This document shows positions 4,621 through 55,499 of a stretch of 64,000 nt of DNA, piece after piece. Position 1 is the stretch's first letter; each line of letters begins with the position of its first letter. Source of the DNA: Podarcis gaigeae (lineage: Eukaryota); NCBI GenBank assembly GCA_964106915.2, contig OZ066918.1; one strand, 5' to 3'. Under the pieces are notes generated by a model. The model saw only the letters and a list, made by a program, of their open reading frames with translations. It did no database searches and was not told the DNA's origin. Both the position numbers and the translations under genes were made by a program.

Positions 4621-5163
4621 TTCTGAATAGGTTTGTACTGTGTATGACCCTGGACCAATTACTCCCATATGTGGAGATTGCCTCATCTCTTCTAGACTAA
4701 AAAGTGGTATAAAATGTTTTTTGGCAGTACACGGAATACATTGCCTACCAGGTTTTGTTTACACAACCAAGATTCAGAGCTTATTCTTTCAGAATTGTTG
4801 TCCTGTGACCTCAGTCTCCCATGTATGGGATTAAGATCTAGATGTCTCCATCACATTATATTGCTGATTTTATGCTGCCTTACGTTGATTTTGTTTTCTT
4901 TTTTTAATTAGTCTGTATTTTACTGTTCTTACGAGAAGTGTTTTGTAAACTGCCCTGTAGATTTTGTTGATGAATGATGCAGCAATATCTAAACAAGCAA
5001 ATAAATAATATATCCCTGGATGCCTGGTTTAGGAGTGTTCTGCACTTCTTTTCTTTCTATGATCCTAGGCATCCTAGGAAGGCATAGGCATAGTAGACCT
5101 GATTGGAAAATATTAAGTAATGACTGCAGTAAGAGGTTTGACAGCTATAACTACCTTCTACAG

Positions 5164-5380
5164 GTAGAAGATATTTTAAATCCATCAGATGCATTATCAG
5201 ACTTTCAGGTTTGCATTGATAAAGGGACTTTTGACGCAATCAGTCTGAACCCAGACAATGCAGCACAGAAGAGGAAGCAATATGTGAATTCCCTGCACAG
5301 AGTGTTGAAGCCTGGAGGCTTTTTCATCATAACGTCTTGTAACTGGACCAAAGAGGAGCTGCTCAAAGAGTTCAAAGAAG
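5164..5380 (+). CDS. EEF1AKMT2: EEF1AKMT2 coding exon 5 (VEDILNPSDALSDFQVCIDKGTFDAISLNPD...ITSCNWTKEELLKEFKE)
   Basis: Acceptor ccttctacag, donor AAG|gtgagt. DKGTFDA and ITSCNWT motifs. Lies inside track ORF 5020..5466. Confidence 0.97.
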
Positions 5381-5964
5381 GTGAGTACATGCCTCTCTTT
5401 AAGGTATTTTGGATATTAAGATACAGTACTAGTGAGAGAGCTTTGTGTCCCGACTTAACCTGCTGAATAGATATAGATAGAGCAACCACTGCAAAGTTGT
5501 TCTAGGGCCGATGCTTAATATGCTCAATTGTGTGTGAATTTCTGTGAATATGGTTTCTGCCTGAATACTTGGAATTCAGATGTACTTTTTGCTAACCTGA
5601 GCCATCACAGGCAGGTTGATAGAGGAGAAAGCATTCTTGCAGATAAATTAACCAAGTTTGTATTTACAGAAGGTAAATAGACTTTGGATTTTCTGGTCCC
5701 CAAGCTGTTTTCTGATTCCAGAAGTAATTATTGACATTGGTGGTTGGGGGAAATTGGAATTACTGGCATGATAGCAGCCTGTTGTCTGTTTATAATACGA
5801 GGACTAAATCTTACCTTGGCAATATCGGTCAGCCATATAAAACATACAAGTCTATAGAAAGTGGTAGAGTCTTCTAATTTGTCTGTGCTCCATTTCGAAT
5901 TAATATAAGTAGCTATCGAATGAGGATATATTCCTAACAAAAGCATTTTTCTTATGGTTAGCAG

Positions 5965-8116: not shown

Positions 8117-8477
8117 GGAACGTGGGTGGCGCTGTGGTCTAAACCACTGAGCCTAGGGCTTGCCAATCAGAAGGTCAGCTGTTTGAATCCCCGCAACGGG
8201 GTGAGCTCCCGTTGCTCGCTCTGAGCTTCTGCCAACCTAGCAGTTTGAAAGCACGTCAAAGTGCAAGTAGATAAACAGGTACCGCTCCGGCGGGAAGGTA
8301 AACAGCGTTTCCGTGCGTTGCTCTGGTTTCGCCAGAAGCGGTTTAGTCATGCTGGCCACATGACCCAGAAAAACTGTGGACAAATGTTGGCTCCCTTGGC
8401 CAGTAAAGCAAGATGAGCGCTGCAACCCCAGAGTCGTTCGTGACTGGACTTAACTGTCAGGGGTCCTTTACCTTTTA
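8117..8477 (+). mobile_element. Sauria SINE, full length
   Basis: tRNA-like head (gtggcgctgtggtctaaacc...tttgaatcc), body gtgcaagtagataaa, tail ccttta cctttt. 11-bp TSD GCCCATGATGA at 8104-8114 and 8478-8488. Confidence 0.93.
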
Positions 8478-17329: not shown

Positions 17330-17476
17330 TAAGGGTGGCAGTGGTTAATCTGTGCCCCCCCCCCCCGGTGTTGCTGGCCTACAACTCCCATCTCTTAAGA
17401 ACTGGCCTTGCTACCTGGGGCTGATGGGAACTGGAGTCCTAAAGATCTGAAGAGTCAGACGTTAACTGGCCCCAGC
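17330..17476. mobile_element. Palindromic hAT-like MITE (ctacaactcccat...gatgggagttgtagtcc family)
   Basis: Inverted internal motifs. Related copies at about 56380-56490 and 59440-59520. Confidence 0.6.
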
Positions 17477-17741
17477 TTGGAGGAAGTGCTCAAATCAAAT
17501 CAAATAGTGTATAAAGGAGCAAATGCATTCAGAAACCATTACATTTTATCACCCTGAACATCTCACATGAGAAATATTTAGGACTAGCTGTGTAGATCTT
17601 CAGTTCTTTCGGATCAGTTCATTTAAGGAGCTACTTAATTCAGCCTGTTTGTGGATGCATGGAAGCCTCATTATACAAGAGCAGGATGGAGGCAGAATTG
17701 CTACGGTCAAAGTGCAAAACTTGGGGTGTTTGATTTGCTTT

Positions 17742-17948
17742 TCCTTCCAGTAGCACCTTAAAGACCAACTAAGTCAGTTCTTGGTATGAGCTTTCGTGTG
17801 CATGCACACTTCTTCAGATACCTGAAGAAGTGTGCATGCACACGAAAGCTCATACCAAGAACTGACTTAGTTGGTCTTTAAGGTGCTACTGGAAGGATTT
17901 TTTTTTGGTTTTGACTATGGTAGACCAACACGGCTACCTATCTGTAAC
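17742..17948 (+). mobile_element. Penelope-like element (PLE) terminal-repeat fragment with inverted duplication
   Basis: Perfect 76-bp inverted repeat (17742-17817 / 17822-17897), then the tail ...agaccaacacggctacc typical of reptile PLEs. TSD TGATTTGCTTT(T) at 17731 and 17949. Confidence 0.85.
17783..17822 (-). ncRNA. Minimal type I hammerhead ribozyme motif (PLE-associated)
   Basis: Minus strand reads GGUAU-CUGAAGA-A-GUGUGCAUGCACAC-GAAA-GCUC-AUACC: stem I GGUAU/AUACC, CUGANGA and GAAA boxes, stem II, and palindromic AGCU stem III. Confidence 0.75.
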
Positions 17949-18490
17949 TGATTTGCTTTTGTTAGAGAAGCCCTTACCACATTGCTTTTTAAAATTTGGT
18001 GCGTGTTTGGCCTGCTTTACTAGTGGTAGGAGTGTTGCTGTGACAAAAAAGATAACTGTACAAGCACAGCAAGTTTGGCTGTATTGTGGCCATGATATTT
18101 ACTAGAAAATATGGGTGTTTGCTGTTATACTGTTAGCCCTGGGGCCTAGTTTGGGTCTGACATGGAGGGATGGGCATGAACTAGCTGGATGTCAGACACC
18201 CAATTAAGCAGACAGGAACCAAGGATAAGAGGCATGTGATGCAGTCACGAAGAGTCTGTGTTATGTACTAGGACGAGTTCCTGACACTAGCAGACCAGCT
18301 TAGAAAGAAGGGATTTATAGGGCCTGGTGACTTTCCACTATGGACCAACACCTGGACCGCTGCTTCAGCCTAGAAGGAGCCCTTGCCCTATGAATAGCTG
18401 GATCCATCTGTTTGGCTGAAGGACTAGAGTGCTGGTGGCTGCTGGAGGCCATTTTTAAAGATATTTGCCTTGTTTAAGCTTATGTTTAAC

Positions 18491-31045: not shown

Positions 31046-31392
31046 AAAAGGTAAACGTACCTCTGCCCGTACAGGCCAGTCGTGTCCAACTCTAGGGTTG
31101 TGCGCCCATCTCACTTAAGAGGCCGGGGGCACTTCCGGGTCACGTGACCAGCGTGACGAAGCTGCTCTGGCGAGTCAGCACCAGCGCAGCACACAGAAAC
31201 GCCGTTTACCTTCCCGCTATAAAGTGGTACCTATTTATCTACTTGCACTTAAGGGTGCTTTCGAACTGCTAGGTGGGCAGGAGCTGGGACCGAAAGACGG
31301 GAGCTCACCCTGCCGCGGGGATTCGAACCGCCGACCATACGATCGGCAAGTCCTAGGCACTGAGGTTTTACCCACAGCACCACCTGCGTCCC
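31046..31392 (-). mobile_element. Sauria SINE (different subfamily, small internal deletion)
   Basis: Reverse complement begins gggacgcaggtggtgctgtgg; B box gttcgaatcc. TSD TTCCCATTCCTTA at 31033-31045 and 31395-31407. Confidence 0.93.
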
Positions 31393-42899: not shown

Positions 42900-43249
42900 G
42901 CACTGTTGTCTAAACCACTGAGCCTCTTGAGCTTGCTGATCAGAAGGTCGGTGGTTCGAGTCTGCCCAACGGGTTGAGCTCCCATTGCTCTGTCCAAGCT
43001 TCTGCCAACCAAGCAGTTTGAAAGCACACCAATGCAAGTAGATAAATGGGGAAAATAACTGGCATTTCCATGCACTCTGGCTTTGTCACAGTGTTCTGTT
43101 GCACCAGAAGCAGTTTAGTCCTGCTGGCCACATGACCCGGAAAGCTGTCTGTGGACAAATGCCAGCTCTCTTGGCCTGAAGCGAGATGAGCGCCGCACCC
43201 CATAGTTGCCTTTGACTGGGCTTAACCGTCCAGGGGTCCTTTACCTTTA
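42900..43249 (+). mobile_element. Sauria SINE, slightly 5'-truncated
   Basis: Homologous to the 8117 copy, tail cctttacctttac. 15-bp TSD CCCACAGAATAAAAA at 42885-42899 and 43250-43264. Confidence 0.93.
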
Positions 43250-45779: not shown

Positions 45780-45848
45780 ATGGTGATGATCTTAACTACA
45801 ACTCTGGAAAACAAAGGTGCTGATTCTCTATCATGCAGGGCTGAGTTG
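45780..45848 (+). CDS. FAM53B: FAM53B first coding segment (MVMILTTTLENKGADSLSCRAEL)
   Basis: Strong Kozak ACCATGG. Resembles recalled human MVMVLSESLSTRGADSIACGTFSREL. Donor TTG|gtaaga, phase 0. Confidence 0.9.
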
Positions 45849-46591: not shown

Positions 46592-46739
46592 ATCATGGTG
46601 TCTTCCAAAATGCTGACAGTGTTTATAATAATGCAAACAGAATTATGATGTGTCTTTCCCAAACTGTTCTGACTATAGAATTGTGGCTTTAGTGCCATTT
46701 TTGACTTTTCTTGGCATTTTGTAAACCATTTGCTTAATA

Positions 46740-46980
46740 CAGTGGTACTTCGGGCTACATACACCTCAGGTTACAGACGCTTCAGGTTACACACTCCGCT
46801 AACCCAGAAATGGTACCTCGGGTTAAGAACTTTGCTTCAGGATGAGAACAGAAATCGTGCTCCGGCGGCGCGGTGGCAGCAGGAGGCCCCATTAGCTAAA
46901 GTAGTGCTTCAGTTAAGAACAGTTTCAGGTTAAGAACGGACCTCCGGAATGAATTAAGTACTTAACCCGAGGTATCACTG
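46740..46980. mobile_element. Tigger/pogo-like MITE
   Basis: TA|CAGTGGTACTTCGGG...CCCGAGGTATCACTG|TA. Closely similar to 54712-54937. Confidence 0.9.
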
Positions 46981-47328
46981 TATTCTGGTTACTCATTGTC
47001 CCAGAATTGGTTACTAGTGCAGATAATCTCATAAGAATTGGAGCAAAGCACACTTGGATCAAAAGAACTCCATCTTTCCATTCACAAAGGAAGGTTTTAG
47101 GAAGAGCGGAAATAGAGAAATTAAACTTTTTGCTTATCCTAAGAAAAACAATTGTGGTTACAGATAATTTACTCCTTCCTTCCTAGTTTACTATAAGACC
47201 CAACCCTTGTGAAATGGCAATTACAGTTAAAATAGAGAGAAATGTAGTTTCAAAATATTCTTCCTACTAACTCTCCCCCCCCCCCCCGGATCTAAAACCA
47301 GTCTTCTAAATAATCATTTTATATTTGG

Positions 47329-49594: not shown

Positions 49595-49649
49595 CACACT
49601 CCAAAGAAGATGAGTCAAGGACCCACTCTCTTTTCTTGTGGAATTATGG
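49595..49649 (+). CDS. FAM53B: FAM53B exon 3 (HTPKKMSQGPTLFSCGIM + 1 nt)
   Basis: Acceptor ttgttttcag, donor TGG|gtgagt. Peptide identical to the recalled human FAM53B segment. In frame with exon 2. Confidence 0.95.
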
Positions 49650-53320: not shown

Positions 53321-54711
53321 TCTTATTTATCATAACACAGTTATATTTGGAGAAAAAGTATCTGTATACATATTGCTCATTTGCATTAATTTGCTGTCTC
53401 TCCATCATCACAACACTGTGCCACGGAAAGGTTTTGCTAAGGAGAAAACCAGTTTTGTAGGGGAAAACAATAAAAAAAATTCCTGCTTAATCATATGCAT
53501 TTTTACTCCGTTGTATGTGCTGCTAAGCTCAATGGAGCTTGCTCTCAGGTAAATAGGCAGAGGGTTTCAGCCTTTCCTGGTGAATAGTTAATGCAGATAT
53601 CTGAAAAGGCCTCAGATACCACTTGATACACTATTAAAAAACATCAGTCTTCATCAAATATTTGTCAAGTCACAGTGCCCTAGATCATTTCCCCCCTTTT
53701 CTTAAAGGGCAAGAATCCTCTGAGTTTAAAAAAATGTTGAAATTGGTATAATTACTGCCAAGAGACGAGTGTAAAAGAATACTGTTCCTGATTTTTGTTT
53801 TGCAGGAAAAAGCATAGTAGATGAAAAATGTATAGCTATAAATTCAGCCTTGAGCAAGAACAATTTTGTATGCCTTGCTTGAGTAGCCCTTGAATCATGT
53901 GCAAATAAATCGTTGCTGTTATGGAACAGAATATTTCTTTTATCCTCCCAGACAGCCAATATTATATTTCTCCAGTCAAAAGGGATACAAATGTAGTGGG
54001 TGGGAGGGTCACAAAGAGAAGCTGGTTCAACATAATGTTTAGGCAGTAAAACTATGGGTTTTTTGCTTTTAAAAAATATGTTCTGTAGCCAAAGGAGGAA
54101 TTGAAGCAAATATTTAATGCAATGCTGCACCCTAATTCCTCTCTTAGAGATTAAAAGGAAAATATTGGCTGCTGTTCTCAAGCTGCCTTTCCCAGAGTTG
54201 GTCCATTCATGTCAGTAGTGGAATTTGGCTAGCTTTAGGATTTTGTATTGCGAATGTTCAGTATTAATAGTGGTAAAAAAAGGCCTTCTTTCACGAATTT
54301 ATTCTGTTGTTTTACTAAAGGAGCATTGGTAACTTGGGGGCAACCTGATGCTCAGAGTTCTTAAGGAAGAGTCCCTATAAAGGCAGCATCTATTTCTGAG
54401 GTTTGACAGCTAGGTGGGAGAGTTTGCTGAACTCCTGTAGGGTTTAATGTTTTGGAGCTTTTGGCTCCCATCTTATCCGTACACTAGGGGTTGAAGCACT
54501 GAACATATTCCGCTGTATATATCCAGACACTGGCGTGTGCCCTGAATATACCTGAATATACCTAAAGCAAATGCAGAGCTTTTACAAACAGCATTGAGGG
54601 TGTCAACTAGTTTCTTAAAGTAGCTGGCATGTTCCTTAAAGTTCCTGGCATGGCAGGAACTCATGATGTTGAAAAGAGATGCAAAAGCCACGTGCCCAAG
54701 AGAAAGATATA

Positions 54712-54937
54712 CAGTGGTACCTTGGGTTACAGATGCTTCAGGTTACAGACTCCGCTAACCCAGAAATGGTACCTTGGGTTAAGAACTTTGCTTCAGGATG
54801 AGAACACAAATCGTGCTCCGGCGGCGAGGTGGCAGTGGGAGGCCCCTTTAGCTAAACTGGTACCTCAGGTTAAGAACAGTTTCAGGTTAAGAATGGACCT
54901 CCAGAACGAATTAAGTTCTTAACCCGAGGTACCACTG
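54712..54937. mobile_element. Tigger/pogo-like MITE
   Basis: TA|CAGTGGTACCTTGGGTTA...TAACCCGAGGTACCACTG|TA. Confidence 0.92.
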
Positions 54938-55499
54938 TAATAATCTTTAACTTCAATTAGAAGTGGGCCAAAACAGAAACCCGTCTTCTGTGGTATCTGC
55001 TACTTTTCTCATAGACAATGTAACTGGTAATGTTCATTGATCTCCTCTCAGTTCTGCCTCAAATACACTAGATCTACAGTCGACATGGCCAAAGGGATTT
55101 TGATGTCTGCCTGAGATGCTAAATCCAAGCAATGCCTCCAGCTGTGATGGTAAAAATAAAACACAAAGCCAAATATTTGACAATTTTCTGCTGTAATGGC
55201 AGAATTTGGATGCATCTCCCACTTCGTATAGGTCAGACACGTGCTTTATTAGGAAACCAGTAGAATTGGCAGGCACTGTTTCAACAAACATGCAACAGTT
55301 TATGGATCAAAATATAAAATTGTTATAGAGCCAGTTCGAGGGAAGTTTCATTCACTCCTCATTTTCAGCGTGTGTGTCTAGTGACAGCTGATGGGGAGCA
55401 CAGACACAGCTTTTAGCTCTTCATGTTACAATTTATTTTTCTGGGTTATACCTTGAACCCTTTATAATATGGAAATATAAGCATTTGATCTTTCTTGGC

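Follow-up and report, generated by a model that had tools for sequence, protein, structure and literature searches.

A head-to-head insertion of a hammerhead-bearing, probably Penelope-like repeat in Podarcis gaigeae

The 206 bases inserted between positions 17731 and 17960 of the window, by which we mean the whole 64-kb stretch of DNA that was analysed, are very probably a dead-on-arrival, 5'-truncated insertion of a high-copy Penelope-like element (PLE), in which two hammerhead-bearing ends were joined head to head during insertion. The parts of the insertion, in order along the window, are the following.

17731..17742, plus strand: left copy of the target-site duplication, 12 nt, its last base also belonging to the left arm; the sequence is single in X4 and X8, where the site is empty
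17742..17822, minus strand: inverted, 5'-truncated terminal segment of the repeat, tailless, with stem I of the hammerhead as its start
17818..17821, no strand assigned: loop of 4 nt, the head-to-head junction; it is a copy of stem I's 5' strand that only the minus arm has
17822..17897, plus strand: forward, 5'-truncated copy with C3 of the core as its first base; hammerhead core at 17822-17856 without the 5' strand of stem I
17898..17948, plus strand: unpaired 51-nt tail consisting of a T9 tract and 42 nt, confined to the forward arm and closing the insertion on its 3' side
17949..17960, plus strand: right copy of the target-site duplication

The two arms (17742-17817 and 17822-17897) are exact reverse complements at 76 of 76 positions with the 4-nt loop ATAC between them, just as the earlier note on this DNA had described. 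A search of the 64-kb window found no other perfect inverted repeat with arms longer than 14 nt and a spacer of at most 20 nt, and no second copy of the insertion sequence was found within the window. The direct repeat of 12 nt (17731-17742 and 17949-17960) corresponds to a duplication of 11–12 nt, base 17742 being common to the duplication and the left arm. Nine of its 12 bases are A or T, and the surrounding 72 nt are 60% AT compared with 59% window-wide. Inverted repeats at both termini, as would be expected of a MITE or a DNA transposon, are not present, since the right end of the insertion is the unpaired 51-nt tail.

Short-read contigs of four of 23 runs were aligned to positions 17400-18300, namely X1 and X2 from organism A (X2 being a different sample from a different study), X4 from organism B and X8 from organism E. 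The site is empty in X4 and X8, with one contig each joining 17730 to 17949; the joint skips 218 bases and has 12 letters compatible with either side and 255 letters of side. Because those 12 letters fit both sides, the 12-nt repeat is a target-site duplication, and the empty-site contigs prove what had been proposed earlier from the direct repeat of 11–12 bp. In X1, flank-to-element contigs were found at both ends (17400-17767 and 17927-18300) at single-copy or flank depth (46-49), and X2 holds the right tail-to-flank junction (contig 17927-18300), its left side being uncovered at 17648-17709. Repeat depth is high as far as 17957. No organism A contig among those listed runs across the exact centre of the palindrome without differences.

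The window differs from the organism A runs at 3 of ~740 flank bases, from the organism B flank by 6 other letters and 14 gap letters over ~640 bases, and from the organism E flank by 11 other letters and 3 gap letters. As the site is empty in B and E, the insertion is younger than the split from these organisms, and the empty site in two relatives together with the filled site in two organism A samples identifies a species-level insertion and not an assembly artefact. The three flank-base differences from both organism A runs place the insertion on at least two haplotypes. These differences are at 17513, 17992 and 17994, and at the last two the window carries the letters of B and E. The description of the insertion as very recent therefore stands in part: it is absent from B and E, but it is filled in both organism A samples, with no empty joint among the joints listed for X1 or X2.

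The insertion is located 28 kb upstream of the first coding exon of a FAM53-family gene, and we infer that it lies in a 5' non-coding intron of this gene. The following exons are recognised in the window.

~5140-5385, plus strand: methyltransferase exon, upstream of the host gene (match to Pfam Methyltransf_31 at E 1.7e-07)
45780..45848, plus strand: host gene of the FAM53 family, first coding exon (match to positions 1-21 of Pfam FAM53 at E 0.005, which does not reach the curated cut-off)
49595-49649, plus strand: next exon of the FAM53-family gene

Pfam searches with exon pieces gave a match in one case out of four, two of the slices having missed the exon start or been very short. The earlier note had put the insertion in intron 1 of FAM53B; this placement is retained as regards the family, with an exon match at E 0.005 that is below the cut-off, and the name itself comes from synteny with the upstream methyltransferase exon, on which basis the host gene would be FAM53B. 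Elsewhere in the window, a CpG-rich stretch is found near 12 kb, an interspersed repeat family at 46737-46982 and 54709-54939 has short inverted ends and the look of a non-autonomous DNA transposon, and another interspersed family occurs at 8117-8401, 31223-31392 (inverted) and 42900-43176. A second, unrelated high-copy repeat fragment lies by a C15 run at ~17340-17450 and is evident from depth and from loose ends at 17401, 17403, 17439 and 17449.

The minus strand of the insertion carries a hammerhead motif with the following features.

17783..17822, minus strand: complete minimal type I hammerhead motif, a putative ribozyme matching the consensus in the PMC4209133 supplement
17822-17818 with 17787-17783, minus strand: stem I, 5 pairs
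17817-17811, minus strand: core CUGAAGA
17810, minus strand: extra A between A9 and G10.1
17809-17796, minus strand: stem II, 5 pairs and a 4-nt loop
17795-17792, minus strand: GAAA
between 17788 and 17787, minus strand: predicted cut, after C17, which follows the palindromic AGCU

This motif was the sole match of a minimal-hammerhead descriptor, composed with knowledge of the motif, on both strands of the window, and none of 100 shuffled windows was matched, so that descriptor and consensus together bear out the complete minimal type I hammerhead claimed for this strand. It has the CUGANGA core with an extra base, the G10.1-C11.1 pair and the GAAA of the minimal hammerheads of PLEs, a palindromic remnant of helix III with an NUH cleavage triplet (AGCU, then C17), and a helix I of 5 pairs, within the range of 3-5 for this class. 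In the earlier description of the core, CUGAAGA, GAAA, AGCU and stem I were correct and the extra A between A9 and G10.1 had been omitted; stem II is also present, but folds as 5 pairs with a 4-nt loop and not as 6 pairs around 2 nt. The 14 nt of stem II form a perfect palindrome (17796-17809 and 17830-17843), and base 17822 serves twice, in the fifth pair of stem I and as C3 of the other arm. The copy on the plus (pre-mRNA) strand, at 17822-17856, has no helix I, with a mismatch at 1.1-2.1 and pair probabilities of at most 0.0003, which agrees with the missing 5' half of stem I read earlier from the letters. No hammerhead family is among the 22 and 3 Rfam covariance-model matches obtained at E up to 10.

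The RNA of the element has a predicted fold of -173.6 kcal/mol (z -20.8). Stems I and II form with a probability of 0.86-1.0 in the isolated minus-strand 40-mer; the addition of 8 bases of the other arm lowers the probability of stem I to 0.002, and in the full element the probabilities of both stems are 0.0 on either strand. The hairpin is predicted at -148.6 kcal/mol versus -90.5 for the best fold retaining the hammerhead helices, a gap of 58 kcal/mol, and with the left arm removed the pre-mRNA strand still fails to build stem I. Two 40-mers when cofolded (-37.2 kcal/mol) pair through stem II and stem I and not through AGCU; stem II being palindromic, two monomers are predicted to pair via this stem, which provides a second route to a dimer besides the AGCU palindrome. 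Because the cores occupy opposite strands, a transcript from here contains one same-strand copy and never the pair that dimerisation requires.

Since the hairpin is favoured over the hammerhead fold, there is no same-strand partner and the pre-mRNA forms no stem I, the ribozyme is predicted to be silent at this locus on both strands, and the hairpin is then likely an ordinary by-product of insertion. It had been suggested that the antisense arm locks the ribozyme and so protects the host transcript. This is not supported, because the pre-mRNA copy has neither stem I nor a dimer partner; the predicted folds do contain the lock, which shuts the intact minus-strand motif to the same degree (stem probabilities of 0.0), but it would be redundant.

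The T9 tract of the tail, which is not part of the hairpin and is read in the sense direction of the host pre-mRNA, is followed by TAG (17898-17923, plus strand), and together they resemble a 3' splice site; a donor-like AAG/GTG is found at 17880-17885. The T9...TAG segment could be left over from a PLE intron or act as a cryptic acceptor in the host 5' intron. A frame on the plus strand extends from an ATG in loop II to the end of the tail (17836-17948), interrupted by one stop (17863-17865), which is missing from some family copies, and a second ATG at 17917 opens its last 11 codons, which may be compared with PLE tails that hold the first codons of a frame. As evidence of a coding start this frame was rejected, being too short.

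Between 8,496 and 9,959 contigs were aligned per run, a small part of them on the other repeat at 17400-17450, and the summed depth in the tail bin was 7,300-46,000 times that of the flank, a figure that is not a copy number and means very high copy only. The centre of the palindrome is bridged, with at least 31 letters on each side, by 7 of the 24 listed element-only records. These seven have 5-11 other letters and 0-7 gap letters at about half to full single-copy depth, and six of them come from X4 and X8, so that, the site here being empty in those runs, they represent hairpin centres at other loci. Thirteen listed joints within the element (e.g. 17821 to 17912-17928) are weak, with all sides shorter than 30 letters.

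A protein search using the forward frame, read through its stop, as the query returned two candidates (P0002 and P0003), both of which are spurious translations of other copies of the repeat. P0002, from an unrelated public contig, comprises an antisense arm identical at 12 of 12 residues to the window frame at 17786-17821, a 29-codon (~87-nt) spacer and a sense arm, which is a head-to-head layout, and P0003 appears from its translation to be a forward copy starting at about stem I. The codons of P0002 past the antisense arm agree with the X8 consensus of loose ends behind 17821, which indicates that the family extends upstream of the ribozyme. A fixed start of the family at these loose ends was considered and dropped, as the family sequence in P0002 runs further upstream. 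Variants above 5% among family copies are confined within the motif to the CpG at C11.1-G12, C17 to U and one base of stem I, and the 22 bases after the motif contain five variable places. Because the junctions vary between copies, the hairpin is likely a by-product of insertion and not a fixed mobile unit. Hammerhead pattern scans of metagenome, viral and prokaryote contigs gave 0 matches each. No publication on this repeat family or locus was found in the literature searched; Repbase, Dfam, subscription journals and supplements may list the family.

The repeat is likely a Penelope-type element. Protein searches returned no RT or GIY-YIG frame linked to it, the frames found being spurious and without RT domains, and PLE membership is for this reason assigned from the ribozyme and the architecture. 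P0004, the single representative match, was rejected as a linked PLE frame, as it is a tandem-repeat protein with 35% identity and was taken as a chance match. The target-site duplication revealed by the empty site in X4 and X8 is as expected of an endonuclease-bearing PLE, an inverted 5'-truncated copy stands head to head with a forward copy at a variable junction, and a tail is present at one end only (17898-17948), its 51 nt being longer than the 30-40 nt described. An AT-rich target, another mark of such insertions, is seen in the duplication itself (9 of 12 bases) but not in the 72 nt around it (60% against 59% window-wide). The ordinary AT content of the surroundings, the length of the tail, the missing RT or GIY-YIG frame and the lack of an Rfam hammerhead match speak against a PLE origin. 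This architecture, with a true target-site duplication, supports the earlier view of a Penelope-type minimal hammerhead in an inverted pair of terminal repeats.

From in vitro data on a different PLE clade we infer a route of two-strand priming for this insertion. The endonuclease of the element would nick both strands, 12 nt apart, and each nick would prime reverse transcription of the same RNA segment, with one cDNA begun at a distal start site (the tailed arm, 17948) and the other at a proximal site (the tailless arm, 17742). Both cDNAs would stop at the 5' edge of the hammerhead, one at stem I and the other at C3, and their ends would be joined via an overlap of 1-2 nt at 17821-17822, the resulting hairpin then persisting as a neutral or near-neutral passenger in the FAM53-family intron. 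The ends of the arms are 119 nt (tailed) and 68 nt (tailless) after the start of stem II. Neither arm begins at the predicted cut site (17852 and 17787, respectively), which is consistent with uncut RNA as the template. LINE-1 twin priming is unlike the present case, where both arms copy the same segment and two templates or two passes are therefore needed. Fold-back self-priming, a proposal made in PMC3846280, may also have made the hairpin, since it is able to produce the palindrome centre, but a further switch would be needed for the tail.

Doubtful, though not to be dismissed lightly, is the alternative of a short non-autonomous family of ~135-145 nt, reaching from just 5' of the hammerhead to the end of the tail, which would have its own transcript start, use PLE protein in trans and include the hairpin as one form of insertion. 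Such PLE derivatives are described in PMC8557442 and bioRxiv 10.64898/2026.07.22.740005, and both arms here, the forward arm of P0002 and the copy in P0003 start within ~10 nt of stem I (the latter two as judged from translations). Loose ends accumulate behind 17821 in all four runs (70-89 contigs) with identical first 8 consensus letters, and agree at 0.37-0.44 over 30 letters versus 0.63-0.68 at the edge of the continuing repeat at 17401/17403. However, any non-hairpin copy breaks at 17821 because the query turns there, and the contigs with long loose ends were selected for meeting unique DNA; the antisense arm of P0002 extends ~87 nt further upstream, with first codons matching the X8 loose-end consensus, a Pol III A/B box pair was not found in the unit, and a stop of the reverse transcriptase at the folded ribozyme would cluster 5' ends equally. 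Also unlikely, and more speculative, is a scheme in which, in this reptile-type lineage, a short PLE-dependent RNA starting just 5' of the hammerhead, and not at the cut site, is copied from both nicks at once and seeds thousands of perfect 40-80 bp ribozyme-centred hairpins. These would record in vivo how a PLE dimer primes on two strands from two start sites, cleavage would not define the end of the template, and the hairpins would form a large intronic pool of dsRNA for editing and endogenous siRNA.

We consider it improbable that the entire 206-nt hairpin moves as one unit and is copied whole, or is a MITE-like element. Near-identical centres do exist elsewhere, and one (17770-17862, with 11 other letters and 2 gap letters) occurs in both X1 and X4, but the gap letters of the bridging records vary (0-7), a long spacer separates the arms of P0002, the 51-nt unpaired tail on one side keeps the inverted repeat from being terminal, and a perfect 76-bp hairpin would be a poor template for reverse transcription. 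The suggestion that the ~210-bp hairpin forms a mobile family of its own is not supported on similar grounds, as other junctions differ by 0-7 gap letters or by the ~87-nt spacer and the family continues upstream. Retention of the hairpin for regulation of the host gene, be it as a locked ribozyme, an editing substrate, a small-RNA precursor or a cryptic splice site, is very improbable. Although the hairpin is in the sense pre-mRNA of a FAM53-family gene, with its fold of -173.6 kcal/mol, and the site is filled in both organism A samples, two close relatives lack it, no lock is needed for the ribozyme, the perfect identity of the arms is expected from youth (flanks differ at 3 of ~740 bases), and Rfam miRNA matches are all below gathering (best 64.5 bits versus 90), as any long hairpin gives. 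Hardly credible is an assembly artefact, which the earlier note had named as a way in which its reading might fail and which the short-read contigs did not bear out. Palindromes can be misassembled, and the exact centre is unspanned by organism A contigs among those listed, but X1 contigs at single-copy depth (46-49) cover the two outer junctions, which have opposite orientations, X2 covers the right junction as well, and the duplication is identical to the empty site.

Read as a dead-on-arrival PLE insertion, the single locus is of little weight, being a clean species-diagnostic insertion marker with a textbook head-to-head PLE layout. Its value is that of a natural test case for how PLEs form inverted ends and for the purpose of their hammerhead. 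Arms that stop at the 5' edge of the ribozyme and not at the cut site, together with a tail on one arm, are as two-strand, two-start-site priming would predict, and a genome-wide census of such copies could separate this route from fold-back self-priming.

Both the motif class and the insertion architecture are already known, and the locus is a fresh example of them. The motif matches the >80% consensus given for PLE minimal hammerheads by Cervera and de la Pena (2014, PMC4209133), including CUGANGA with an extra base and G10.1-C11.1, and is the same in its helix II of 5 pairs, GAAA, palindromic 15.2-16.2, NUH and short helix I. The painted-turtle row of the supplement, which is not marked as PLE-linked, shares the core, the ends of stem II and GAAAGCU, and the examined part of the supplement showed no lizard row. 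The opposite-strand motif pairs described there are separated by ~100-700 bp, and the motifs reported are for the most part single ones of truncated PLEs; in contrast, the motifs here abut around a 4-nt loop, one is without helix I, and helix II is a perfect 14-nt palindrome. The same source describes single minimal motifs as uncleaved and dimers as weakly cleaved.

Non-LTR retrozymes, as described in PMC7229834 and bioRxiv 10.64898/2026.07.22.740005, are likewise short, non-coding repeats with type I hammerheads related to PLE terminal repeats, and their monomers are common in introns (~42-44% in Xenopus). They form head-to-tail tandems whose same-strand ribozymes release circles, whereas the present insertion is head to head with one ribozyme per strand; a head-to-tail tandem with at least two same-strand hammerheads is absent, and the window holds no other copy. 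The bioRxiv report gives cleavage for one of nine Xenopus dimers, and PLEs are there reported absent from birds and mammals.

PLE insertions commonly feature an inverted 5'-truncated copy, junction palindromes, a tail at one end and a duplication of 8-10 bp, according to PMC3846280, PMC8557442, PMC8969392 and PMC2377424; in PMC8557442 the tail is described as 30-40 nt, and non-autonomous PLE derivatives exist. The head-to-head inverted pLTR insertions of Arkhipova et al. (2013, PMC3846280), Craig et al. (2021, PMC8557442) and Schostak et al. (2008, PMC2377424) consist, as here, of an inverted 5'-truncated copy and a forward copy, and share with this locus the junction palindrome, the tail at one end and a short duplication shown by the empty site. 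The present insertion differs from them in that there is no frame inside, the arms are 76 nt versus ~180-220 nt, the tail is 51 nt versus 30-40 nt and the duplication is 12 bp versus 8-10 bp. Poseidon of the green anole, PAc (Frangieh et al. 2024, PMC11167929), also has a hammerhead near the end of the element. In that system the motif was cleaved only with the PLE protein, and cleavage was dispensable for insertion. The 3' end of PAc is ~110-120 nt after the start of stem II compared with 119 nt here (17830 to 17948), a likeness of layout. The anole protein cuts and extends both strands, and its reverse transcription starts at two sites that bound the tail, the start sites being 111-118 nt into a frame beginning at stem II of the hammerhead.
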